Shown here: positions 8,863 to 27,465 of the stretch, one piece after another | Position numbering within the stretch: position 1 is the stretch's first letter | How the letters are laid out: every line of letters begins with the position of its first letter | From: Curvularia clavata | Lineage: Eukaryota | Length of the DNA: 64,000 bases | Assembly: GCA_023920165.1 (NCBI GenBank) | Contig: CP089280.1 | Coordinates: 2,232,001 to 2,296,000 of the forward strand | Direction of reading: 5' to 3' | Translations under genes and position numbers: made by a program | Notes under the pieces: model-generated | Told to the model about the DNA's origin: nothing | Seen by the model: only the letters and a program-made list of their open reading frames with translations | Databases searched by the model: none

Positions 8863-9790
8863 GGGCTGGACAAGGGGTTTCGGGCAAGTGTCTTCACTAT
8901 CATCTTATCTTATTTCGACGGAGGGCGTTTCACGTCCATAGACTACTAGATATCCTCTTTCCTTCTGCACCAGAATGACATTCAATTTGCCGCTTTTGGT
9001 CTTATTCATACTGCTGATCTAGCTGACAGTCAAGCCTTGGTGCCAGGCACTCGTGTAAAGAGTGGAAACAGGCTTGCTAGGTCATTTGGCTGAAGTACTG
9101 TCCTAGAAAGAGGCGGTGCTTGAGGTGTTAGTAAATACTAAAGCATAGGGAGACAGAAGGCTGAAAGGGGGTGGCGGCGCATTGAGGCTATGCGCAAAGC
9201 ACGGAAGGCTGATAGAAATCGTAGGCAGCAACACTCAGGAAATTAGAAGAGTATATGGAGGATGTTTTGGGGTCTCAACCATGGGCGGTCTTTCGCGCAC
9301 CGATTGCTGACAGCAAGATACTATAAGTTTGAAAATCAACGGCTAACAGACCCGTGTTTTCCAAGTCACTAAAGAAGCTCAGAGAGCTGGAAGACCAGTG
9401 TCACGATACTCACTGAGTAGGACCGACTTTGATCCTGTTGCGGCTAGCGTATTGTGGCTGCTGTGACGGATCATGGCGGCCTTCAAGCGGTCAATTACTT
9501 GAATACATTCATTTCTATCGCCGAAATGGATATTTGATAAGCGTTAGACCAATACCTGTCATATCCATGCTTGGAACAGCCTGTTTGTGTCTAGATTTTG
9601 GCTGCGCATCTCATATACGCTTGCTCAGCCTCGTGGAAATAAGGAAAGGCGCACTTGGGCCGCAGCATTCCGATACTGCTTGCATGTTCATTTCACCCTT
9701 CTCTTCTCGACACCATCGAGACTTACAGCTAGCTTCTTTGTCGCCGGATTTATCTCGACAGAAGAGTGGTCTCTGGTCCTCAGACTCAAG

Positions 9791-11560
9791 ATGACCACCG
9801 GAACCCCGCTGCCTGCTTTCGAGCACGAACCACTTCCCGAACACACCTCACACTTCCGACTCCTGCACATAATCCGTGGCGAATACGGGCAGCACGTCGA
9901 GTGTGAGATCTCGGCTTGGCCTATTGATAACGCACCGCCATACTTTGCGATATCATATACCTGGGGCGATCCGGCCGACACGGCTGAGATCACTGTCAAC
10001 GGAAGGCCTTTAGTCGTGCGACGCAACTGCGAATATGTTCTCCAGCAAGCTTTTGCAACCAAGTCAAGTAAATATTTCTGGATCGACGCCATCTGTATTG
10101 CACAGACGACAGAAGAAAAGAATCATCAGGTCGGGATCATGGGCCAAATCTATTCGAGAGCGTATCACGTTCTGGCATGTGTTGGACCCCACCACAACGA
10201 TAGCGAGTTCCTTCCAGAGGCTATCAAAGCACATTGTTCATTGATCAGAAAGATTCGCCACCGGCAGATGCCGTGGGATGAGACGTGGGAAAATCCGATT
10301 AATAGAAGCTGGAGACTACAGATTCGTTGCATTTTCCGCATTGAAACCGAGACACGTCGAAGGATCTTCCAGTCATTGTGTTCATTTATGAGGAGAACTT
10401 ACTTTCGACGTCTGTGGATAATTCAAGAGCTGCATTTAGCACGAAGTGTGTCATATTGCTTTGGGACAGCTGTAGAGGCGGCCGGAGACCTTCTTGCCCT
10501 GTACCAGCTTCTAATCATTTGGGCAGACGATGACCCTTTTCTTTGGTCCTGGCCGGTACGGTCACTTGCAACACTTGCCCGATCCACACTAGCACGTTCT
10601 CGAGCAATAATTTCACTGGCAATGGAACCAACATTTTCAGACATCTACCCTCTGTCTTTCCGCTTGAAGTTCGCCTGCACAACAAGAAAACAAAAAGTCG
10701 AGGATATACTGCTGGATCCCAATCTGCAGTGCGGTGATCCCCGAGATCGTTTGTTTGGTGTTTTGTCTGTTGTTCATCAGGAACATCGAGATGTCCCCAA
10801 GCCAGATTATACGAAGGACCTTTTCGAGGTTGCACTGGACGCTCTAAAGCTTATTTACCAAACGCATCGGATCAGAAATGACCGTTTCTGTGCAAAAAGG
10901 TTGTGCCATAGCTTCCATATCACTGGAGAAGAGGCATCTCTTCGTCGCGCCCTCAATTTGCGCTCTGGTAGACCAGCAAGAAGTGCCATATCAAAGAATA
11001 GTGACGCCACTCATATTAAAGAAAAAGTGGCCCCATACATATGGGGGGCTACTCCAATATATCGGACTAGGGAAGACCCGATGCCGTCTGGGCTGTCATA
11101 TGATGGCTTTTGGAAAATGGACGTGTCAGTGCAAGAGCAACAAGAGTACTGCATCCTGAAGTTCAAGAATGGTCCGGCCACGACATCGACATTGGCACCT
11201 CTTGGTACGAGGCATGGTGACGTGTGGTTATTCAATGGTGCAGGAAACGCAAAAGGAAGCCCGTCTATAGGCTTGATAGTCAGGCCATCAGAAAGCGGCA
11301 GATACGAGTTGATAGGGCCGACATATCCCGTCAGAATTGACGAAGAATTGCCACCATTCTACACTCTTGATAGCTTCACCGGTTTCTGGTACCCAGAGGA
11401 TCTTCTACTTTTCGGATGGACTCTGGGAGAGCTTGAGTTGCATGAGACTACGCAAGGTCAAATGATTAAGTTTGTCAATCAGCGGATTTGTGCATGGGAA
11501 GGTTCTTCATACTTTGAAAAGCAGGCTAGAATCCGGTACCCCCTTTTAAAGGTTGATTAG
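9791..11560 (+). CDS. HET-domain (heterokaryon incompatibility, HET-6-like) protein
   Basis: FRLLHI, YFAISYTWG, FWIDAICIAQ, EKNHQVGIMGQIYSRA, YFRRLWIIQEL, CGDPRDRLFG. Probable start ATG 9791 (MTTGTP). Confidence 0.88.
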   Translation: MTTGTPLPAFEHEPLPEHTSHFRLLHIIRGEYGQHVECEISAWPIDNAPPYFAISYTWGDPADTAEITVNGRPLVVRRNCEYVLQQAFATKSSKYFWIDAICIAQTTEEKNHQVGIMGQIYSRAYHVLACVGPHHNDSEFLPEAIKAHCSLIRKIRHRQMPWDETWENPINRSWRLQIRCIFRIETETRRRIFQSLCSFMRRTYFRRLWIIQELHLARSVSYCFGTAVEAAGDLLALYQLLIIWADDDPFLWSWPVRSLATLARSTLARSRAIISLAMEPTFSDIYPLSFRLKFACTTRKQKVEDILLDPNLQCGDPRDRLFGVLSVVHQEHRDVPKPDYTKDLFEVALDALKLIYQTHRIRNDRFCAKRLCHSFHITGEEASLRRALNLRSGRPARSAISKNSDATHIKEKVAPYIWGATPIYRTREDPMPSGLSYDGFWKMDVSVQEQQEYCILKFKNGPATTSTLAPLGTRHGDVWLFNGAGNAKGSPSIGLIVRPSESGRYELIGPTYPVRIDEELPPFYTLDSFTGFWYPEDLLLFGWTLGELELHETTQGQMIKFVNQRICAWEGSSYFEKQARIRYPLLKVD

Positions 11561-12761: not shown

Positions 12762-15700
12762 ATGACGCGCCCTCACATTATCAGAGCAGGTAGGCACCCA
12801 GCCAACGCGCATGCCCTCCGACCCGTACAGGCTAACATAGGAGGAAAGACACGATTGACCTGCAGGATAAGACCGCCCCGACTGCCCAGGATCATTCTCA
12901 CCAACCAGAGCACCCGGCGCCTCTTGGAATAGGCCCAGCAGCGCCCCATCAGCAGGCCGCCATTCGCAGTGTAGAGAAGGAGCGTTCTTCCGAGGAGGCA
13001 CGCCTGCAGGATGCCTGGAGCCATGCTAACAACACGCTTCGCGACGACCCCGGCTCCGACGACGACCGCACCATCACAAACAATGGCCATGGACATCACT
13101 CTATGCACGATGAACAGGCTATTAGGTTGAACGGCGGCGCGCTTGTTGATGGGGATGACGCCGACATGCAGGATGCCGATGTCGACGAAGACATGGACGA
13201 CGACATGATGGACAAAATCTCGAGTTCGCCCTCTATAGACGATGGTGGGTATTTTTCACTTTATTCTCCCCTGCCCTGGCCGGCAAGACACCAGTCTCTG
13301 ACTCCGCGGTCTTCGCCCTTTCCGTCACCACTCGCTTCTTCATCTCCTTTTACAAACACACCCACTCATTTTCCTATCTCTGTCGATGCTGCAAGACCTT
13401 CCAGTGTCTCATCGTCCGACAACTCTCCTTTGTCAAGATTTCAATTCTCATCCACACCCATTTCTTTCCATCCACTTCAATCTACAGAAAATCTGTCAAC
13501 GGAGCATCATCTTGGTGAGTGTACCGGGACAAGGACCGCCAATGTACCGGACAAAGAACATCACATCAACACCGACGCGAGTGTGAGCCCGAGGTCCCTC
13601 AACTTGAAGGTAATCGAAAGGCGCCTACAGCTGATGAAGCTGATGAGCGAGGACTCGGAAGCATCACTCATTTCCGACCTCGATGAGGAAGAGGTCAGGA
13701 ACACACTGAGACCCATCAGCCGTTCCTTGCTCGACGTCTCAGATGACCCGTTCTTGGACTACGAACCCAGCTCAGCTGAGCAACTGAGAACGACGCCTTG
13801 GCTCAGCCCACAGTTCAACGAAGAAAACGACTTTGACTCCGATTCTTGGATTACCGACAGTGATGCCGACTCCTGGGACGAGAACTTTGACTCAAAATAC
13901 GATGATGCATCCATTGACATCTCCTTTTCTCATGAATCCAGATTTATCGACTCAGGCTGGGGAGGCGAATGCTTACGAGAAACAGAGGACATTGATTTCG
14001 AATTCGTCTACGCTCTACATACATTCGTTGCGACGGTAGAGGGTCAAGCAAATGCAACCAAAGGTGACACAATGGTGCTGCTGGATGACAGCAACAGCTA
14101 CTGGTGGTTGGTGCGAGTGTCCAAGGACAACAGCATCGGTATGTATCAACGCTCAAAGTACCATGCTTAGCTGACCAGTCAAGGCTATCTACCCGCGGAG
14201 CACATTGAAACACCCACGGAGCGTCTGGCCCGCCTCAATAAGCATAGGAATATCGACCTCTCTGCGACAATGCTTGGCGACACCGCCGAGAAGACTAAAA
14301 ACCCACTCAAAAAGGCCATGCGACGGAGGAATGCAAAGACGGTACAATTCGCGCCACCAACCTATGTCGAGGCATCAGACTATGACTACTCCTCGGACGA
14401 GGGCGAAGGCGAACTTTTCGGAGGCCCTGAACCAAAGGAAATGCAACAGCAGCAGCAGGCTGCAGCACAAAACAGCAATCCATCCCAAGATGAGGACATG
14501 CAAGTGCAGCCGCTCAAAGTTAATGGAGCAAAGAAGGATGGCAATGTGCAGCCGGATGGCGACGCCCGGCGCTCCAGTGACGACTCCAACAAACAGGACG
14601 GACAGCGAGGAAGCGAAGACAACCTGGATCGACCATTGGACCCCAAGGTATCGCGCAACGGCACACTACGCAACACCGACTCTTTCTTCAAAGACGACAA
14701 CACCGAAACACGCAAAATCACTCTTACGCCCAATATCCTTCGCGACGACTCAAGTTCCTCAACGACAGGCTCCCGAGAACGTGGGCCAAGTCTGGAGAGC
14801 TTGGAAAAGAACGGCTTTGCAGACAAGGTCAAGGATGACAAGAGAAAGAAGGAGAAGAAATCGGGCATGCTAAGCGGGCTGTTCAAACGTAAAGACAAGA
14901 AGGGTAAAGGTCCACAGGATTCACTGGACAGCGATATCGACAAGCAGGAGGAGGTGGATCGCAGCTCACCCCAATCGAAACCCTCAGACGAGCTTGCGGA
15001 ACGGCCGTCAAATGAGCAGGTGACTGCCCCTGCACCTTTGAGACAATCAAGCAAGAAGAAATCACAAAATCGGCCGACTCATCGAGACGAATCTCCGATC
15101 AAGACAAAGGGCATCTTGAAGACAGAGAGTCCTACGGACATGGATCCAGAAGATGATATGGACGCCGCAAATGAGGAGCCTGTCACGCAGCAGATGACCT
15201 CCTCGATGCGCTTGGTGCCACCAGAACAGGACGACACAGGCAAATCGCCTGCCGTAGAGCAAACGCCATCTGTCTCGACCTCGACCTCCACAACCTCAAA
15301 GAACCCCTTTAGTGCTCTGATGAAAACTCAACATGAAGGAGAGGTGAAGCGCGAAAAGGTCACCAAAGCCAAGCAGCGTGTGCAGTTGGACGATTTCGAC
15401 TCTGATGAAAGCAATGATCCTTTTGCAGACCCTGAAGCCGAACGTAAATCCAGTGAGGCCCAGCGTTCAGAATCCGCTGGGCGTCTGTCAGAATCGCCCG
15501 TACATATCTCTGTTGCCGATGTACAAGCAGCTCAGAAAGAGAATGGGACCGATAGAGAAGTTGATTCTCATCATGCTCCAGGTCTGTCGACCGACAGCTC
15601 AAGCCAAGAGACTAACTCACCCATATCGACGCCAACGCCCGACGACAGTCCCACTAAAACTGTTCAGGACAGTGCCGGTGCCCCACGGTCTCAGTCGGGG

Positions 15701-17285: not shown

Positions 17286-19224
17286 TCACACACTCTCCCT
17301 CAGTACCGCCTTAGCCGGCTTCTCATCCCCCGCTGCCTCCTCCGCCTCCTGCAGCCCCAGACTTTGCGCAATCTGAAACAACCTTGTCTTCTCCTCATGT
17401 GCAGTACCATCTCCAAACACCGCATCCATTTCCTCAAGCGACTTTCCCCTCGTCTCCGGAATCCAAAACCACGTAAACCCAAACGCCACGAGGGCAAAAC
17501 CCGCAAAGAAAATATACGTTCCAAAGCCAATCGACTCTAGCATATCCGGCGTCACAAGCCCAATGATGAAATTGCACATCCAGGTGGAAGAAGTGGTGAG
17601 CGACATGGCTTTGGAGCGGTTACCCAGGTTGTAGATTTCAGAGGGAAGCACCCAGCCGATGGGCGCCCACGAGTACGAGAAGTTGATGTCGTAAATGTAG
17701 ATGAAGGCGATGCCGGTCCAGCCTGCGGCGGGGTGAGAAGCCAAGGAGGAACCATAGCCGCCGATTACGCCACCGACGATGAGCAGAGAGATGCAGGTGC
17801 CGGCTGCACCGCAGAGGAGAAGTGGCCTGCGGCCGACTTTGTCGATGAGGAAGAGGGCGGGGAGCGTAGAGAGCGTGTTTACTATACATGTGGTTAGGAA
17901 GTTTGTCGCTTTTGGCGGATAGGAGGGAGGGCGGCTTACCGATGCCGTAGACGCCTGTTGCCAGGAGCCCCGTTGTCTTGCCTGACAAGCCCAATTGCCC
18001 GAATATCGTGGGAGCGTAGTAAATGATTGCGTTACCTTTATCCGTTAGCCCAAAAAAAAAAGAATGCCTCGTGGTGGAAGTTCAGTGTGCCTTACATCCG
18101 ATGAATTGCTGGAAAAACATAGTACAGCAACCTATCGCTGTGCGCTTAAACGACGGCCATGTGGAAAACAGCGTCGAGTATCCTGCAAGATACAGCGAGA
18201 CGCCGGATTTACCAGGGAACTTCTCTCTGTTGTATGTCTCTTCGAATATGACTTCTGAGCGGATAGCCAGATACTCTTTCTGCACGACTGGGTCATCGGG
18301 CTGCGCGCGCCGCACACGGGCTAGAGCGCGGAGCCCAGCTTCTTCGTTGTCGCGCATGCAGTAGTATCGAGGCGACTCTGGGAAGAAAAGCATACCGATT
18401 CCCAGCACGAGGCCAGGGAATATTTGAATTGCAAAGGGGACGCGCCATGCGGCGTCGCTTTGGCCGGTGCAGCCGTTTGGACCGACGTCGTTGATGGGGT
18501 CGAAGCTGGGCTCTGATGCGGTACCACCAGTGTATGGTATGTTGGGGGCACACCGAGTGCCGCCAATGTACTGGGTGCCGTACTCAAGCCAGTAGGAGAC
18601 GAGAATGCCTAGCGTGATGGAGAGTTGTTGCAGGACGACAAGCGTGCCTCTGATACCAGCGGTGGAGACCTCGCTCATGTACATGGGGACGATCATGGTG
18701 AGCATTCCAACAGCGAAACCTGCGATTGCTCGACCTAAAAACTCATCAGTTAGACTCTTGAATCAATAGTGGCAAGATGGGTTTCCATACCAGCAAAAGC
18801 CATGGGAATACTTATAGCGCCTGCTTGTAGCGCAGACCCAATGGTGAAAATCACAACGGCGATTATGATCGAACCCTTGCGGCCAAAGCGATCTGCAACG
18901 GGACCATTGACGAGGGACCCGAACCAAGCAGCGAGCAGGAGAGTCGAGACAAACCAGCCTTTGAACGAGCTGTCGAGGTAGATGCGAGGGAAGGCTGCGG
19001 CGAAGGACTCCATGGTTAGGACGCCAGAGATTACGCCTTGGTCGTAGCCGAAGAGGAAGCCACCCAAAGAAGCGAACTACAGAGGGTCAGTCGTAGAAGG
19101 GTGAATTGATCCAGAGAATATTTACAGCTGAGAGGCCAAGGAGGTATGGGTTCTGTCGCAGTTCCTTGTACACACTGATCTTCTGGGCAGGCCCAGGGCC
19201 GTCGACAAATGCTGGGTCAGACAT
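17286..19224 (-). CDS. MFS sugar porter (monosaccharide/polyol:H+ symporter family)
   Basis: GGFLFGYDQG, DRFGRK, VPMYMSE..RG..QQL, PESPR, QQFIG, IDKVGRRPL, SWAPIGWVLPSEIY, PETRGKSLEEMD; four short introns. Confidence 0.93.
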
Positions 19225-19310
19225 ATTGGCCGGAGTCTCAAAGATGTGCCAAATTGACCTGCTTGAATGAATCCTGAAAACGAGGACAGACAAAGCATCG
19301 CGATGTCGGA

Positions 19311-19320
19311 TTTTATATAT
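19311..19320 (-). promoter_or_regulatory. TATA box of the sugar porter gene
   Basis: ATATATAAAA on the minus strand, ~90 bp upstream of ATG 19224. Confidence 0.55.
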
Positions 19321-19372
19321 GCTTACAGATCACTCAACATCAGGCCTTGCAACACCACGATGCACACGACCT

Positions 19373-19389
19373 CGGAGCACAGTCGTCCG
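19373..19389. promoter_or_regulatory. Gal4-type UAS (CGG-N11-CCG), site 1
   Basis: CGGAGCACAGTCGTCCG; close to the Gal4 17-mer consensus; in the porter/kinase divergent promoter. Confidence 0.75.
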
Positions 19390-19518
19390 ACCCCACAATA
19401 CCGTCAAACCTGCAGCCATGGAGACAAAATACTATGCAAGTTGTCCCAATTTTTTCCCCGCATGCACAACATTTCCTGATTCATGCTATAAAACTGGGGA
19501 TCGAACATGACTTGTGCA

Positions 19519-19535
19519 CGGACTACAGTGCTCCG
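19519..19535. promoter_or_regulatory. Gal4-type UAS (CGG-N11-CCG), site 2
   Basis: CGGACTACAGTGCTCCG; reverse complement CGGAGCACTGTAGTCCG is 15/17 identical to site 1. Confidence 0.75.
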
Positions 19536-19698
19536 AAACCCCCCCACAGGGCACGCTTCTTGATGATGAGAGAGCAGCTTGGCATTCGTAGTCCTACTAT
19601 TATGGCCGAGTCGTTGCAAAACATTGAGCTTGACCATATCTTCTCATAACTTTCCATCATCTTACTACTCATTTTGCTATTCCCCTCTCAGTGGCGAG

Positions 19699-20508
19699 AT
19701 GACGAACGACACGCGTGTGGATAAGCTTCCTGCCGCTATCCTCGATTTAGTCAAGCGCTCGGAAAAGCTGCTTGCTCGCCAGGCGGCCGACCCTAGTCGC
19801 CGCATGCTTGTTGCGCTTGCGGGTGTGCCTGGTGCGGGCAAGTCGACTGTTTCCGATGCGCTCTTGATAGAGTTGGCAGCACGAGGCATCAGAGATGTTG
19901 CGGTAGTGCCAATGGTAAGATGCCGTTGCAGCGACAGCAACAAGGTTCTGACGGGATCAGGACGGTTTCCATTACACCCGTGAAGTGTTGTCGACGTTTG
20001 AGGATGCGGAGTTGGCGTTCAAGAGACGCGGAGCCCCATTTACTTTTGATGCGGAAGGGTGTGTTAGGCTTGTCAAATTGCTCAAGTCTACGCCTGTTAC
20101 TGTCGAGGGTGAGGAGGATTTGTGTGTAACTGCACCGAGCTTTGATCATGCGGCAAAGGATCCGGTGCAGGATGGGATTCGCATCTCTTCTCGTACACGG
20201 CTCATCATCATCGAGGGTAATTATACGTTATTGAGACAGAAACCATGGGATCAAATCGCAGAGATCTGTGATGAGAGGTCTGTAATTGCTGTCTATCCAT
20301 TAACGCCGCGTCCGGACTGACAGTGTATAGATGGTTTGTGGATGCGCCTGTAGATGTCGTCCGTGATCGTCTAGCACAGCGACATCTTGCTGCTAGAATT
20401 GAGACCTCGAAAGCGGCTGCCGTTGCCAGAGCTGAAGAGAACGATATCCCCAACGGCGAGCTGATACGATCATTACTCATCCAGCCTGACGTCGTCATCG
20501 AGAATTGA
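19699..20508 (+). CDS. P-loop kinase, phosphoribulokinase/uridine kinase superfamily, Yfh7/YggC/FrcK-like
   Basis: Walker A GVPGAGKST; PM|DGFHY (intron 19915-19960); RRGAPFTFD; APSFDHAAKDP; IIIEGNY; R|WFVD (intron 20278-20330); RAEENDIPNG. Confidence 0.88.
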
Positions 20509-20554
20509 TGCAATATCAGAGCATACAATGGAGGCTGAGAGAACTCTTGACGTT

Positions 20555-22687
20555 CTAGAAATTTGTCGTGGACAAGTCCCAGTCGAAAGAGTTGAACAGT
20601 TCATTGGACTCGACGGACCATGGGAAAGCACTCAAAGCATCCTTATCCAGCTCGAAGTTTTGAAATGTAGAGGAATTGAGATCCTCGGTAGACACGACTT
20701 GGTCTAGGATGGCTACACATCGTGCTGAGAGGGAGTCCTTGACGAGGTGTTCGCGAAATGTAGTCCTGGCTAATCGTACGTCCTCAAGCCAGGTGGGCAT
20801 TTCCTGGGCGGAGGGAAAGCTGATTATGCAAAGCGTGATGACTAGAGCGGAATGAAAGAGGAAGTATCTATAAAAATTCGTCAGCTACCAGGGCTTTGGT
20901 GACCGAGAGATGCTTTATACTTACGTTGCGTACCAGCCTTCTAATCTGCTTGGCTCACTCGTGGTGTACTGATGGATTGAGGTAACAGTAGAATGTGCCG
21001 CCTCCAAACAAATCCGCTTACATTCTTCCTGCGCCGACTGCGTAGCCTCATCTGGGATTTGACCCCGTTCGGCAATTGCGCGGCGAAGCAGAATCTGTCG
21101 GAAGATGATAATCTTGAGGTTCCAAAACCTCCACCACAGGCGCGACCGCGCGAAGATGTACCACCGGGCTGACATGTATGGCGGTTGAGTCAACTGAAAG
21201 TACAGGGGTACGGTGTGTGTCCATGCGTCCATGGTAGTGTTGAAGGAGAGGGCTGCTTCAGCGGACAAGCCAGGCTCAGCCAGTAATCTGTTGGAGATGT
21301 GGTTAGTGCTCAAATGAAAGCTACTTTGCTCTCGAAGTGAGGAGTAGATTGTTGGAGTATTAAGTTCGATAGGTAGGTGCGTGGTTTGTGGTGTGAGTGC
21401 CTGGTTCTGGTTAGCTATATGCTAATCATCGTTGCACCGTACAAGTCGCCTACCTCATCATTGATGTTGAGGACAGAATGCACATTCATAGAGTTTTGAT
21501 CAGGCAACATGATTGCTCGGCCAAAAGTCGTAGATGCTCCGCTGTCGAAAATGTACAGCCCCCACCAGATTCTGCGTCTTGCCTCACGTTCGATCAGGCT
21601 GATATTCCAGTGCGGAAGCTCTCTATGAAGGGCTAAGCTCAGCGCCGTGCGCACCGCAAGACCTAGCAGATTCCATCCCGTGTTTGGGCTGTTGCGCTTC
21701 TGGCTAAGATTACTCAGCAATACCAGTGCTTGGACAGACGACAGGCTGGCGGCTTCAAATACGGACTGGTCTTGGCCGATGGCGAGGGCTCGACGATAGA
21801 GGTAGTCTTCAAGGCCAATCTGATCGTTGTTTGTCGTCCATGCGCCGAGAGCTATGATTGCGTGGTACAACATGTCCCAGGATTTCTTGGGCGGCCGTGG
21901 AACTACTTCATAGTACTGTGCGCGAAAAGTTGCCTCATGAACGAAGGGGTAGACAACGTGAAAATTGAGAAAGTAGGCATCGATCAGGCTGGCTGAAAGC
22001 TGTTTGGCGAGAGCAGCATGTGACACGTGCGACGAGGCGAGAACTTTTTTGAAAGCCGAAGAAGGCGTCGGGACACGTTGCTGAGGTGGTGCTCCAGTCT
22101 GATGCAAGAATCCAGCCCAATCGAGCAAGCAACGCAGAAATACTACACCAGAGGTTGAGCCTGACGATATTTTAGTAACACGTTTGTTATGTCGTCAAGA
22201 GGAGCTGACCTAGGTACCCTACCCCTGTAGGCTCAACGGATAGGGCGGCCATGCCATCAGTCAATCCGTCTACATTGACCTCCTCTTCTTGCCAGTTGAA
22301 TCCATCGACGTTGTTTGGTACCGCTTCCGGAAGGGGAGGTTCATTGGAGCTAGAGGTAGTACTGCCCTGAGGGCTCAGGGCTGTCTCTGGCGTTCGTGGC
22401 TTAATTACAGGCGGGGTTGGGACAGCGACATTAGGAGAAGAAAGGATTTCTTCAATGTCAACACCGGGAACCAACTGGCCAACCAGTGCTTCCAGACATT
22501 GCAGCCTTTTCTCTACGCTGGTGAGGTAGGCCCTGGTCAGTGGCGATCTGATGATCTTGCCGCTGTAATGGCACTGTGCACCGCTGTGTGCGCAAGCAGC
22601 ACAGAAAGGCGTCTCTTTTGAGCACTTGAGCTTCTTTGCGCGACAACGATCGCATGATAGGGCATCCTTTGGCCTTCGGTGCTCCAT
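20555..22687 (-). CDS. Gal4/Lac9/GalX-like Zn(II)2Cys6 transcription factor
   Basis: [28 protein letters not shown] followed by [23 protein letters not shown] (Gal4: [23 protein letters not shown]); fungal TF middle-homology region ([26 protein letters not shown]); acidic/aromatic tail; three introns. Confidence 0.9.
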
Positions 22688-24350
22688 GCATGAGACGGGT
22701 TAGTGTGGCAGAGGTGGGGACAGATGGGGTTGCAGGAGTATGGGAGAACTAGACGCAAGACGTTGCTGATCTCTGCCGCAATCGGACCGACACAGCCGCT
22801 ACCTCATCCGCCTTAGAGAACTTTAGTAATAGCTACATGGAGAAAGCGAATCTATCAACACAGCAGTCGTTCTGAATGGGAAGAAGCTGTCAACTGACAA
22901 AAAAAAAAGAAAATTTGAGGCTACAACCAGCCAAGCATAGTCAAGTCTAGAGGCGCTTGACCGCATTCGGTATTGCAGACCAGGAACATTTTTTACACAT
23001 CAGGATCAGGACTAAGAATATGATGGTACCCATGTCAATTTCGAAGCCCAATATTTCTCGCCATACATTGACTGGTCTCCAAAGTCAAGTGTGTGTGCTA
23101 AACACTTGAACATTGGCTGTCACAGCGTCGACGAAGTAGCTGCCATGACAGATGTTATCAAGTGCTCATTTGACGATCTAGTCCGCTTGGATTCTGCCAG
23201 TGATATTGCCATTTCCAAAACCGTGGATTACAGAACTATACCCAGCCAATTGAAGTCGACGCTTAGAGCATGTGCAACTCTTGAGCTTGAGGCACTGGAA
23301 TCGCCTGTCCCTAGCATAGAATGGGTCTTCAACAGATTACTAAGAAACTCAAATTCAGGAAGCACAGCTCCTTACCAGCCCCTATTTCGCAACGAGTTCT
23401 TCGCCGCTATTTGAGACTACACTTCAGGTTGAGGGGAGGGGCAACATTACTTGTTTCTGGATATCTCAATACTACCTTGTCCAATTCTGATGGACTTCTG
23501 ATGGCTTGAGTGCACTATACGTGAGACGAGAAAATCCAAAGCAATTCCCAGCAGCACCAGCATGCCTGGTGTTGGTTATGTTTGGCCGTCCGCATCGCAC
23601 TTACCCGACTGGGCACCAGTTGCTGCATTCGCACTAGAAATGTCACGACAGTGCATATCATTATTTACGTATTCCTGGCCATGGTGTTGCACCTCGGCCG
23701 ATCGCCGATTCGAGCCTCTCATTTGCCATGCATCCATCCCCCTACTAGGCCTCTACCACGGTTATATGTCGTCGTCCCTCTCCTCGACCATCACCTGACT
23801 GCCAAGGCCATCTCAGCTGACATGGCTCTGGTACACGGCAGCCGGGTTGCATGTCTTGTTGCTCAGCGACTCCACGGACGCCGCACGAGCACGTCACATG
23901 GCCTCCACTCTCTCACTCTCTCCAGCAACCCCCGGCGGTGAGGCATGCAGCGACTCGACCCGCACCGCCACCAGCCACTCGTCTCGCCATCACCAACGGG
24001 CTCGTCGCGCAGAATCCCCCAGGATTGGCGGAGACGGGGCGCTATGCCAGACTCGCTCGCCCAAGCCCCGCGCTCGTGACTGGGGCGCCCGGCCACGTCC
24101 CAGAAAAGCGGCACGCCAGGTCAAAGTCAGCGACGCGCAATTGATAGAGTCAGCATTGCGCGCAACAAAGAGCATTTAGACAATTCACCTTCCCAGAGCC
24201 GTTACCAATACCCCACACGGCGAGCGCGTGCACATGCAGGTACCCAGCTAGAGCCATTGACGCGCGACCACCCCAGGCCCTTATCTGACCCAGCGCCGGC
24301 CACGTCTCTCAGCCGTCGCAAGCCGACCCCAGGTGTAGTCCACCACCACC

Positions 24351-27300
24351 ATGTCCTCCGCCGGCCCCAACCAGTCTCCACCAGCGCGTTCACAGGCTTC
24401 CGCGCAGCATACGCGCACCTACCAGGCCTGCATTCCCTGTCGCCGCCGCAAAGTGCGATGCGGTATGTCTGACCTGCTGTCCTGTTGCTTATCTACAACT
24501 ACTAACACTTCCGTCTTTCCTAGATCTTGGCCCCGTCGACAATCCCCACGACCCGCCCTGTGTGCGATGCAGGAGGGAGAGCAAGGAGTGCTTCTTCTCG
24601 GCCACCCGTCGCAAGAGGAAGGCTGACGACGGCGACGAGTACGACGAGGCCGACGACTATGAGATCCGCAATGGGAGGAAGCGCCAGCGCTCCGCCGGCC
24701 AGCAGGAACCCCTCACCATCACCACCGCAAACTCCGCAGCCTACATTTCCCAGCCCTTGACCCCCGGCGGCTCTGTTGGACGATACGAGCCTCTGCGACG
24801 ACCCAACACGTCCACCGGTCAGCCGTCTCAGCAGAACGACGAGGAAGACCAGAAGGTGAACAATGAGACGCTCGCAACATTGCAGGCCGGCGAGGTCTAC
24901 AGCGGGCATGACGCCCTCAACCTGCTCTTCGAGGCTGCTGGTATGAATGCCCACCACCGCACCGAAAGCAGTTCGAGCCTCCAGCGCCCCACCCTAGGCA
25001 GCACCCCAGGCTCCCAGACCAACTTTGCTAGCCCTCACGCCAACCCACATCACGTCCGGAGCAATTCGCATGCCACCGTCGAGCCCTCTGTAGATCCTGC
25101 CATCCAGCAGCCCGTACTGCCAGAACCGCCCAACGAAGCTGCTTTCGCCGACGCCGTGCGTGCCTGGTCAAAGTTCCGTTTTGTTCGCGCCGGGTGGTTC
25201 ACAGCAAAGGAAGCCATCGCCTACATTGACTACTTCTATGCCTTTCTGTCTCCCCTGACTCCAATCGTCGTGCCAGATTACCGCGATCATGCCTTCCATG
25301 CAAAGCTGCTCAAGGAAGAGCCCATGCTGGTCATCACCCTCCTCACCATCTCCGCCAGGTATTTCCAGCCAAACGGATCCAACGGCGCGGGTGCCACCTC
25401 GAGATCCTACCTTATCCATGAAAAGATGTGGAAGTATCTGCAGGGCATGATAGATCGCATGATTTTTGGCCAGGAGCAGTTTGGCGGCGGCTTCTGTGGC
25501 GCGGGACAACAGCCTGGATCCGACGTGAACCCTCTGTCACGCAAGGGTCTTCGAACACTAGGTACTGTCGAGAGTTTGATGTTACTCACAGAATGGCATC
25601 CCCGTGCCTTGCATTTCCCACCTGGCGATGACGACGATGAGCTTGTGCTCCCCGACGATCCGTACGAGACGGGGCCTAAAGCTGACATGTACAAAGGCGT
25701 GGGCGACAAGCGCATCGACAGTTGGCTCGAGCCGTGCTGGCGTAGCGACCGCATGTGCTGGATGTTGCTCGGAAATGCCATGACACTTGCTTTCGAAATT
25801 GGCGTCTTTGACGAAACCAATGAGACAGAGTTCGAGGAAGCCAACCAGCATCTTTCGCACGCCACCGTCAAGGCCTACTATCGCCGAAAGAACCATTTGC
25901 GAGATCTCCTTATCATATATGTCACCCAGACTAGTGGCAGATTGGGCCTGACGTCCATGCTTCCCAAGATTGATCGTGATGAGAGCTTGAGCGGCGCGCC
26001 TTCACCCCTGGACCTATACAAGGAACGCATCAGTCGGATCAAAGCCCCTCCAGCTCAGTTTGGCATGCGCTCCGATGGACAGCGCCTTCCTCTTGAGTCG
26101 ATCGCTACCCAGGAACGCCACGCAATCCAAGATCTGGTGCTTGATTTTTGGCAGCGCATCGCCAAGATCATGGAGATGGGTAACCTGAAGTTGTTCTCCA
26201 ATCGGCGCAAGACGCGTGAATTGCTCAAGTCGGGAAAATATGAGGAGATGCTCAAGTTCTTCCAAGGCCCTCTGGCGGAGTGGAGAAAATGCTTTGACCG
26301 CGCACCCCAAGGTATGTGCTGTGACATATAGTGCGTCTGTTGCCTTGTGATTCTGACTTTGACAGTACCCACCCAACTTCGCCATGTTCTCATCATCGAG
26401 TTTGAATACACCCGCGTCTACCTCAACTCCCTAGCTCTCCAGGCTGTCGTAGAACGTTGTACTCACAACACACCACTTCAGACACACGCCCAACCCAACG
26501 GTGTCAACGGACGGGCTACTAATGGCAACGAGGACGGTGGGGCAATACCTTTTAGCACACTCGTCAAGTGGTATGCCAACGACCGCCACTACATTAACGA
26601 GGTCATCGATGCGTCACGTAATGTTCTCAAAATCGTCGTGGATGGCCTACATCCAGGTGGCTATCTGCGACATGCGCCTGTGCGGACCTTCTTCCGTATC
26701 GTCAGTGTGGCCATCATTCTACTGAAGACATTTGCCTTGGGTGCAACCGAAGAAGACGTGGCTGTTAGTCTCAGTCTACTCAGCAATTCGGTTGACGCGC
26801 TGCGAACAAGCATCGTGGACGATGTGCATGTTGGTAATCGCTTTGCCGACCTTGTCGAAACACTGACTCACCGAATCCGCTCTCGTTTCGTACGTCTTGC
26901 TGCCAATGGATCCGCTGGAATATCACGTGCGGGTAGCAAGAGTCCTATTCAAGCACCAATGATGCCTCCGCCTTCGGCTCTGAATAATACCAACCATCTC
27001 GCCCCGCCATACATGGGATCTCAGCAAACCGGCCTCTCCGGTACTGGCACGAGCGTTCCTGGTTCGCCCAGCATGGGGCTCGGGACAAGCGGGCGAGTAA
27101 CCCCTCTATGGGGCATCTCTGCAGAACCCTACGACCCAAACTCGAACAGTATATCCATTATGCCACCGCCAGGCAACTACACCAACTTTTCTTCCAACAC
27201 AAACGGCAACAGTAGTAATGGTAACGGTAACGGCAACAACGGCTCCAACTCAGAAGGCACCAACGGCGCGCAATGGGGCCAGTGGGCAGGCAACGGAGCC

Positions 27301-27465
27301 GGCTGGGGTAATGGCCACGACCAAGACTGGCTTGCTCTGCCGCTAGACCCGCTGCTGGACCAGTGGGGTGCGGAAATTAACCAGACGGCCATGGGGCCGG
27401 ATATTGGAGGTATGGATATGTTGGATATCTTGCTCAATATGGGAGGTATGCCTCCGAGTGCCTAG
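24351..27465 (+). CDS. ARO80: Aro80-like Zn(II)2Cys6 transcription factor (aromatic amino-acid catabolism regulator)
   Basis: YQACIPCRRRKVRC|DLGPVDNPHDPPCVRCRRESKEC (intron 24463-24523) matches the distinctive Aro80 zinc cluster; LRTLGTVESLMLLTEWHP; second intron ~26312-26365. Confidence 0.82.

Follow-up and report, generated by a model that had tools for sequence, protein, structure and literature searches.

Among the closest known counterparts of the locus reported here are the Gal4-controlled genes of yeast. In regulators of this type, the length of the linker sets the spacing of the CGG triplets, and a linker as long as that of Gal4 predicts a spacing of 11 bp. The standard Gal4 upstream activating sequence (UAS) is the 17-mer CGGAGTACTGTCCTCCG, and the GAL1-10 promoter has four sites. 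More generally, in qut, alc, and GAL-type mini-clusters the regulator, the transporter, and the first enzyme are clustered, and the sites of the regulator lie in a divergent promoter. The site pattern is also used outside the GAL genes: according to the available sections of PMC4620465, CLR-2 of Neurospora crassa binds CGGN11CCG and drives cellulase genes, and its closest yeast homologue is Gal4. Here we describe a comparable arrangement in a 64-kb stretch of Curvularia clavata DNA (64,000 nucleotides, contig CP089280.1, positions 2,232,001–2,296,000; called the window here). A sugar porter gene and a P-loop kinase gene diverge from a common promoter with two CGG-N11-CCG sites, and the gene of a Gal4-type Zn2Cys6 transcription factor (TF) lies next to the kinase gene. 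These three genes (called the trio here) are a real, deeply conserved module of filamentous ascomycetes. We found no published study of the TF family or of the cluster in full texts, a search that did not cover supplementary tables and subscription journals. The regulon is apparently undescribed so far; it is of a familiar general kind and unusual in the enzyme that it carries.

The porter gene, a member of the major facilitator superfamily (MFS; Sugar_tr), occupies 17286–19224 on the minus strand and encodes 571 amino acids (aa), with its ATG at 19224. The kinase gene occupies 19699–20508 on the plus strand and encodes 236 aa; it belongs to the Yfh7/YggC/FrcK family (PRK09270). The divergent promoter common to both (19225–19698) measures 474 bp between the two ATGs. 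The TF gene (20555–22687, minus strand, 657 aa) is tail-to-tail with the kinase gene, and 46 bp (20509–20554) separate the two stops. An earlier interpretation of the stretch made from its letters (called the sequence-only reading here) had given the same order, strands, and gaps, and these positions hold.

The arrangement is like that of GAL1-GAL10 in that a divergent pair has several predicted activator sites and putative glucose-repressor-type sites in one promoter, with two Gal4-type sites in the trio against the four of GAL1-10. Unlike in the GAL system, the targets would be a porter and a P-loop kinase rather than Leloir genes, and the gene of the regulator, a protein of 657 aa, is inside the cluster. 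Also unlike GAL, no Gal80- or Gal3-like gene adjoins the trio; among the open reading frames (ORFs) neighboring it in the window, we found neither these nor any gene of the Leloir or oxido-reductive pathways. In holding its own Zn2Cys6 regulator, the trio resembles the qut, alc, and GAL-type mini-clusters. Unlike in those clusters, the downstream pathway is not encoded nearby, and we know of no role in fungal sugar catabolism for the superfamily of this kinase, in contrast to the enzymes found there.

The trio is probably, though by no means certainly, a pathway-specific module in which a Gal4-family activator lies beside its probable targets, a divergent sugar porter and a kinase of the Yfh7/YggC/FrcK family. 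A dimer of the TF would bind two 17-bp sites with the half-site CGGA[C/G]NAC and an 11-bp spacing, one of them approximately 150–180 bp upstream of each ATG. It would switch on the porter and the kinase together in the presence of a sugar or polyol, and glucose repression would act through CreA-type sites of the shared promoter. The porter would import the sugar or polyol. The kinase would then phosphorylate (trap) either the imported compound or a ketose or ketose phosphate derived from it. We infer from the sequence that the adjacent TF is the binder of both sites, and in the same way that porter and kinase are co-induced and that CreA plays a role.

Predicted Gal4-type site 1, CGGAGCACAGTCGTCCG, is located at 19373–19389, 149 bp upstream of the porter ATG, and predicted site 2, CGGACTACAGTGCTCCG, at 19519–19535, 180 bp upstream of the kinase ATG; the sequence-only reading had claimed two CGG-N11-CCG sites in the 474-bp gap, and they are there. 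Across the 64-kb window, this pattern is not enriched: it occurs 17 times where 12.7 are expected, a number attained in 17 of 100 shuffles. At the rate of the window, 0.126 sites are expected per 474 bp, and the Poisson probability of two or more is approximately 0.007. Judged from the sequence and its conservation described below, the presence of two sites in this promoter is not chance.

Comparison with related loci weighs much more than this probability. A profile built from 14 TF orthologues and run against metagenome contigs gave 61 fungal loci. Fourteen of these loci (11 distinct) have a divergent kinase and porter, and in every one the promoter between them has two CGG-N11-CCG sites, no more and no fewer, 131–177 bp apart. 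The 11 distinct shared promoters hold 22 sites per 6,982 bp, compared with 32 per 160,416 bp elsewhere in the loci, an approximately 16-fold difference. The promoter of the window is only 44–55% identical to eight related promoters. Invariant in this alignment are TGATTCA, a TATA-like block, a few blocks rich in G, and the two 17-mers. Conservation of the cluster and its sites in relatives was a point on which the sequence-only reading had staked its proposal, and it is borne out: each of the 11 distinct loci with the pair keeps both sites, at corresponding positions.

The 40 half-sites give the consensus CGG-A(31/40)-C/G(39/40)-N-A(31/40)-C(35/40), that is CGGA[C/G]NAC. Both halves of the Gal4 UAS CGGAGTACTGTCCTCCG fit this half-site. 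With a position weight matrix made from the 40 half-sites, site 1 scores 23.8 bits and is the best match in the 64-kb window, site 2 scores 23.1 bits, and the third-best 17-mer reaches only 9.6 bits. On the 61 fungal loci (596,013 bp), the matrix finds 33 matches of at least 15 bits, all of them upstream of the kinase or of a separated porter, a count that is partly circular because 14 loci supplied training sites. Six of the 33 lie in four loci outside the training set (L008, L023, L025, and L035).

Two rearranged loci are informative. L048, whose TF has 40% identity and its nearest match in a Helotiales protein, carries the pair in the opposite orientation with respect to the TF gene, and both sites are kept. 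In the Sordariomycete-like L035, the kinase and porter genes are split by a carboxylesterase gene, and one site is found upstream of each, as expected if each site serves one gene. The region between them (13637–15602 of that locus) contains unannotated ORFs in addition to the carboxylesterase gene. None of these other ORFs has a Pfam match, and the inserted genes give no hint of a pathway. In L049, a cluster of four CGG-N11-CCG matches inside a long ORF was dropped as probable coding sequence. Separately, in L045 (9152–9387) and L050 (9242–9473), two CGG-N11-CCG matches precede a TF homologue by 600–850 bp, with neither kinase nor porter in its vicinity; these matches score below 15 bits and may be chance.

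The other conserved features of the promoter are arranged around the two sites. The TATA-like block, TTTTATATA on the plus strand, is at 19311–19319 on the porter side (minus strand) in nearly invariant alignment columns, and its function is putative. The TGATTCA block (19477–19483) is midway between both sites, is present in most alignment rows, and is a candidate factor-bound element. Three matches to the CreA consensus were found (SYGGRG, as given in a table of the review PMC5468973). One, CCCCAC on the minus strand at 19391–19396, adjoins site 1 and is kept at the aligned place in 5/8 relatives. The second, CTGGGG on the plus strand at 19494–19499, is kept in 4/8 related promoters, and the third, CCCCAC on the minus strand at 19542–19547, comes just after site 2 and is kept in 5/8. 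The presence of such CreA-type sites by both Gal4-type sites suggests glucose repression.

The DNA-binding region of the TF (residues 12–85; 22433–22654, minus strand) comprises a zinc cluster, a linker, and a dimerization helix. It aligns without a gap to residues 10–83 of Gal4 (3coq, E=1.9e-19; 7uik, E=2.7e-19), with an identity of approximately 40/74 residues by a count of the midline. All six cysteines of the zinc cluster align with those of Gal4. Residues 12–62 likewise align without a gap to Lac9 (1cld, E=2.2e-12), and the next zinc-cluster match after Gal4 and Lac9 is Ppr1, at E=2.9e-6 only. The gapless alignment had been part of the sequence-only reading; it is confirmed, and both protein strings quoted there are present in the printed alignment. 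In Pfam, the TF matches Zn_clus (PF00172) at E=2.6e-9 with 37.4 bits (threshold 21) and Gal4_dimer (PF03902) at E=1.2e-6 with 29.1 bits (threshold 22), and also Fungal_trans. The linker is of Gal4 length between the last cysteine and the coiled coil, and its motif R-[ST]-PLTR recurs with the following helix in related loci where the region was recovered. Thus the TF is alike with Gal4 and Lac9 in the gapless zinc cluster, linker, and coiled coil, and the CGG-N11-CCG sites of the trio are alike with theirs. The clustering of the TF gene with the sites and the tight inner consensus favor the adjacent TF as their reader.

Orthologues of the TF are 93–48% identical across Pezizomycotina. The member of the family in Aspergillus nidulans is AN4785 (C8VAN3, in the same 90% cluster), which is 40% identical over 629 aa to the Bipolaris orthologue. 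We found no mention of AN4785 in the searchable full texts.

The linkage of the three genes is deeply conserved. Judged from locus tags and from the loci, the trio occurs in Dothideomycetes, Sordariomycetes, Leotiomycetes-like contigs, and Chaetothyriales. Consecutive locus tags are found in Neocucurbitaria cava (010430/31/32), Pleosporales sp. (002053/54/55), Pyrenophora teres (003129/30), Ascochyta rabiei (0005498/99), Cladophialophora yegresii (01980/81; Chaetothyriales), and Apiospora (015108/09). In Fusarium solani (013725 and 013727) and Fusarium nygamai (00029 and 00031), one gene lies between TF and porter, and locus tags likewise show linkage in Plenodomus, Chaetomium olivicolor, and Thermocarpiscus. 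In 24 metagenome loci the sequence extends 3 kb or more downstream of the TF gene, and 12 of these hold both kinase and porter, and in 16 shorter loci the kinase and/or the porter is directly beside the TF. Of the three proteins, conservation is highest in the porter, with approximately 70–75% identity between Dothideomycetes and Sordariomycetes.

All three genes are transcribed and spliced. The RNA evidence comes from contigs of four public runs (X1, X5, X9, and X20), one study each; the contigs have spliced joints on the stretch and are therefore RNA-derived. Spliced contigs from the runs of the four studies span all three genes. The porter exons on the minus strand are 19224–19126, 19076–18791, 18734–18096, 18035–17940, and 17881–17286, the last including the stop codon. 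Those of the TF, also on the minus strand, are 22687–22210, 22160–21454, 21400–20925, and 20867–20555. The joints of the four porter introns and the three TF introns are all present in RNA contigs from X1, X5, and X20. The kinase exons on the plus strand are 19699–19914, 19961–20277, and 20331–20508, and intron 2 is spliced in RNA contigs of X5, X9, and X20. A frame check gave the spliced lengths of 571, 236, and 657 aa. The kinase model is identical in every residue to P0121 (236 aa), a public protein of Curvularia clavata, the porter has the same length as the public model P0225 (571 aa) from the same genome as P0121, and the TF length matches the public model P0003 (657 aa). The kinase and porter models place the stretch in C. 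clavata or a very near relative, within the Pleosporaceae. The run X9 spans only parts of the stretch, and the depth of RNA contigs gives no basis for ranking the genes.

In X1, a single contig of 5,231 nt (19126–20867 region) lacks the TF and porter introns and retains both kinase introns. This would fit a minus-strand RNA that runs antisense across the kinase gene; it would also fit overlapping transcripts that were merged during assembly. In X9, which comes from a related organism, a 68-nt joint with minus-strand GT..AG ends is seen at 19257–19324, upstream of the porter ATG. It suggests an intron in the 5′ untranslated region of the porter, in a transcript that starts near or beyond site 1.

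The kinase is a member of the same sequence family as Yfh7 of yeast, YggC of Escherichia coli, FrcK of Sinorhizobium meliloti, and At1g03030 of Arabidopsis. It matches the structure of Yfh7 (2ga8) at E=1.2e-17 and a structural-genomics "fructokinase" (3c8u) at E=5.5e-6. The NCBIfam models PRK09270 "nucleoside/nucleotide kinase family" match all three exons; scanned singly, the best exon scores 72 bits against a cut-off of 227 (NF006743). Exon 1 has only generic P-loop matches in Pfam. Walker A, DGFH, RRGAPxTFD, and EGNY are invariant columns in alignments of 64 and 25 members, which include P0121. Residues G42, P44, G47, K48, D73, G74, H76, G96, T100, F101, and others are family invariants kept across fungi. 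On these residues, the kinase is predicted to be catalytic. The family counts 3,576 representative clusters at E≤0.001, and the gene is mostly single-copy in related fungi.

To sample the bacterial members, we used a degenerate DNA sequence encoding the family peptide KGAPETFD as a probe, and it matched at least 80 loci. Of the 80 loci listed, 43 were dropped (26 without a called kinase ORF and 17 with ORFs outside 180–260 aa). The 37 kinase ORFs kept among the matches listed are all 30–40% identical to the fungal kinase (E=1e-11 to 1e-35). Nine lack a close same-strand neighbor, leaving 28 for a count of contexts. The sample is biased, as it follows one motif variant, holds mostly Alphaproteobacteria and Actinomycetota, and depends on crude ORF calling. 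Of these 28 kinases among the matches listed, nine follow a sugar ATP-binding cassette (ABC) system (binding protein, permease, and ATPase; in one case the ATPase only), and in one case the preceding ABC system is of the PnrA type. Another three come after genes for MtlR, Zn-dehydrogenase, and GlpX or the phosphotransferase system (PTS). One (L091) lies amid genes for PfkB, GatZ/KbaZ, a short-chain dehydrogenase/reductase (SDR), and mannitol dehydrogenase, and three are beside a D-lyxose isomerase, a xylose-isomerase-like protein, or an FGGY kinase. The rest have only an SDR gene (1), non-sugar neighbors (6), or neighbors with no Pfam match (4). A link to the uptake and catabolism of monosaccharides or polyols is the dominant pattern in the bacterial matches listed, as in fungi. 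The YggC/FrcK family thus shares with the kinase of the trio a genomic link to sugar uptake, but the fungal partners are a proton-symporter-type MFS porter and a Gal4-type factor, whereas the bacterial ones are ABC or PTS operons.

In L063 and L106 (Citrobacter) and L090 (Rahnella), the kinase ends an operon-like row of an MtlR-like gene, a GlpX-type fructose bisphosphatase, a Zn-dehydrogenase, and PTS EIIC/IIB. We take this row to be that of the E. coli cmt-ygg region around yggC.

A comparative genomics study of 2011 had predicted At1g03030/yggC to be a "sugar/polyol kinase", described in the available part as work in progress (PMC3223725). The proposal of the sequence-only reading that the trio serves the uptake and phosphorylation of a sugar or polyol fits this prediction and the bacterial neighborhoods among the matches listed, and it is plausible; the substrates that it named as examples, galactitol or a ketohexose, are speculative.

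Besides the partial circularity of the matrix counts, several points weigh against the reading as a pathway-specific module. The related fungal loci are phylogenetically dependent. In the other 12 of the 24 long-flank loci, neither kinase nor porter is found within 10 kb of the TF gene, and these pair-less loci include Rasamsonia- and Penicillium-like ones, which are Eurotiales-like. We did not find the linkage of the trio in the Eurotiales-like loci among the 61; synteny across Pezizomycotina, a check proposed by the sequence-only reading, holds for Dothideomycetes, Sordariomycetes, Leotiomycetes-like contigs, and Chaetothyriales. At the level of RNA, the spliced form of kinase intron 1 (19915–19960, 46 nt) was not found in any RNA contig crossing it; with this intron unspliced, the frame stops after 94 codons, and its removal is required for the frame. 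The RNA contigs span the entire intergenic region, and start sites therefore cannot be placed relative to the Gal4-type sites. The remaining points concern other factors that use the site pattern and the role of bacterial relatives of the kinase, and they carry the two alternatives that survive best.

The first of these is that an orthologue of ClrB/CLR-2 binds both 17-mers, instead of or together with the adjacent TF, and that the pair belongs to a plant-biomass regulon. CLR-2, ClrB, and ManR are, like the TF, Zn2Cys6 factors of filamentous ascomycetes that use CGGN11CCG at non-GAL genes, the sites of the trio being predicted ones. As CLR-2/ClrB shares the pattern, the adjacent TF need not be the binder, or the sole binder. 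In the sections available of PMC4620465, chromatin immunoprecipitation sequencing (ChIP-seq) of CLR-2 finds CGGN11CCG in approximately 60% of 114 bound regions, with sugar transporters among the targets. MtCLR-2 of Myceliophthora thermophila shifts promoters with the CGGN11CCG motif, according to the accessible text of PMC13267753. No observation made here separates ClrB/CLR-2 from the adjacent TF. On the other side, the Gal4-type TF gene adjoins the sites in several fungal classes, and the sites follow the pair where it is inverted or split. The tightly kept inner positions (CGGA[C/G]NAC) suggest a dedicated reader. The regulon of CLR-2 is large, with 54 bound and dependent genes, mainly cellulases, in the part of PMC4620465 that was available, as against two visible targets of the trio. 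The name CLR-2/ClrB appears on none of the 120 TF homologues listed. In A. nidulans, ClrB is presumably AN3369, a different gene from AN4785. We consider this alternative unlikely, if a serious contender. The sequence-only reading had presented the Gal4 code as wired to a non-Leloir pathway. The probable targets are non-GAL genes, but the novelty was overstated in view of CLR-2 (PMC4620465, as far as available), which already uses the Gal4 code outside the GAL genes and is in this way both a precedent and a real rival binder. If the adjacent TF does read the sites, the question is raised of how the TF and CLR-2/ClrB, both with CGGN11CCG, avoid or exploit cross-talk.

The second alternative concerns the kinase, which could be a regulator or sensor rather than a catabolic enzyme. 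It would then modulate the porter, as FrcK may do, or relay the inducer to the TF in the manner of Gal1/Gal3. Enzyme-derived signal proteins beside Zn2Cys6 activators are a known theme (Gal3, QutR, and GaaX), and the kinase gene is tail-to-tail with the TF gene. The available sections of PMC10433430 place S. meliloti frcK in the operon of the fructose ABC transporter, and they name frk, not frcK, as the fructokinase. Mutants of frcK lose approximately half of their capacity to take up fructose, and the authors propose that FrcK may act on the transporter; in those sections, dated 2023, they leave the substrate of FrcK open (PMC10433430). Several bacterial contexts among the matches listed already hold a PfkB or FGGY kinase, which speaks against the P-loop kinase as the enzyme of the first phosphorylation. 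This suggests that it acts on a derivative (a ketose or a ketose phosphate) or is regulatory. Against a regulatory role, Walker A and the other invariant residues are kept across fungi, which fits an active enzyme, and in the rearranged L048 the kinase stays with the porter and not with the TF. We hold a purely regulatory kinase to be quite improbable.

Much less survives of a galactose or galactitol module, towards which the sequence-only reading leaned and in which the trio would be the Pleosporales counterpart of the oxido-reductive pathway controlled by GalX. It draws on the Gal4/Lac9-like DNA-binding domain, and on the one bacterial context among the matches listed (L091) that has a GatZ/KbaZ-like enzyme and one of the mannitol dehydrogenase family. 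Aspergillus GalX is, like the TF, a Zn2Cys6 regulator of a sugar pathway. However, the galX and galR genes of A. nidulans are AN10543 and AN7610, respectively (PMC8780418, in the part available), and the family member there is AN4785, so that the TF is ruled out as GalX. In the available part of the review PMC5468973, GalX is only 20% identical to Gal4, has varied DNA-binding domains, and has no orthologues outside Aspergillus. The tie to GalX drawn by the sequence-only reading is therefore abandoned. No Leloir or oxido-reductive pathway gene is near the trio in the window, and Gal4-type domains run unrelated regulons in other fungi. We regard a galactose module as very improbable. That the adjacency means nothing, with a housekeeping Yfh7 orthologue sharing its intergenic region with a transporter and the sites kept for another reason, is hardly credible: the kinase family is ancient, widespread (3,576 clusters), and mostly single-copy in related fungi, and Eurotiales-like loci lack the linkage, but several classes keep the linkage, promoters that are otherwise saturated keep the sites in number, spacing, and sequence, the split pair of L035 retains one site per gene, and a parallel linkage of kinase and sugar transporter is seen among the bacterial matches listed.

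A wider form of the pathway-specific reading can be put forward tentatively, and we think it possible but doubtful. The TF family would be the filamentous counterpart of Gal4/Lac9, and the porter–kinase pair its old minimal regulon. The Gal4 code would then predate galactose use and would first have served another sugar or polyol route, with a Yfh7/YggC/FrcK kinase as the first committed enzyme.

The Yfh7/YggC/FrcK/At1g03030 proteins are an orphan family in bacteria, fungi, algae, and plants, and the two-gene regulon offers an experimental route to the substrate, as its inducer is a candidate substrate of the kinase. If the wider form of the reading is true, it would provide the first physiological assignment for a kinase family conserved from bacteria to plants, and a new phosphorylation step of a ketose, polyol, or ketose phosphate tied to uptake in both kingdoms. 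The promoter is also a compact system for Gal4-type recognition outside yeasts, with two sites, one per gene, and natural inversions and splits. The names "LAC9/GAL4-like" in many fungal genomes carry no implication of lactose or galactose control.

The porter matches Sugar_tr (PF00083) on three exons with E values of 1.4e-42, 1.7e-38, and 2.3e-19, and these matches span positions 5–108, 106–271, and 296–452 of the 452 in the model. The source names of its orthologues conflict (xylose symporter, HXT3, mfs1, quinate transporter, and ecdD), and an assignment of the substrate from these names was rejected for this reason. CgMFS1 was also set aside; the paper describes a protein of 394 aa, and a link to the porter was not confirmed.

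The neighbors of the trio are a DEAH helicase, CTU2, an EFL1-type GTPase, a PH-domain protein, and other housekeeping genes. The trio therefore stands alone, and its description as a self-contained unit in the sequence-only reading is borne out. A heterokaryon incompatibility (HET) domain protein is encoded amid the housekeeping genes at 9548–11560 on the plus strand. The right-hand neighbor (24289–27465, plus strand) is a second, unrelated zinc-cluster gene with long ORFs that have no Pfam match. Its cysteine motif is split over two frames, CIPCRRRKVRC... and then CVRCRRESKEC, which suggests an intron inside the zinc cluster.

The public gene models P0056 and P0092 fuse the TF with the porter. 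These two are among six public TF models that look wrong (P0056, P0092, P0007, P0079, P0081, and P0001). Of the other four, one is fused to a SET-domain gene, two more are fused to an unrelated N-terminal protein, and a Stemphylium model is without the zinc cluster.

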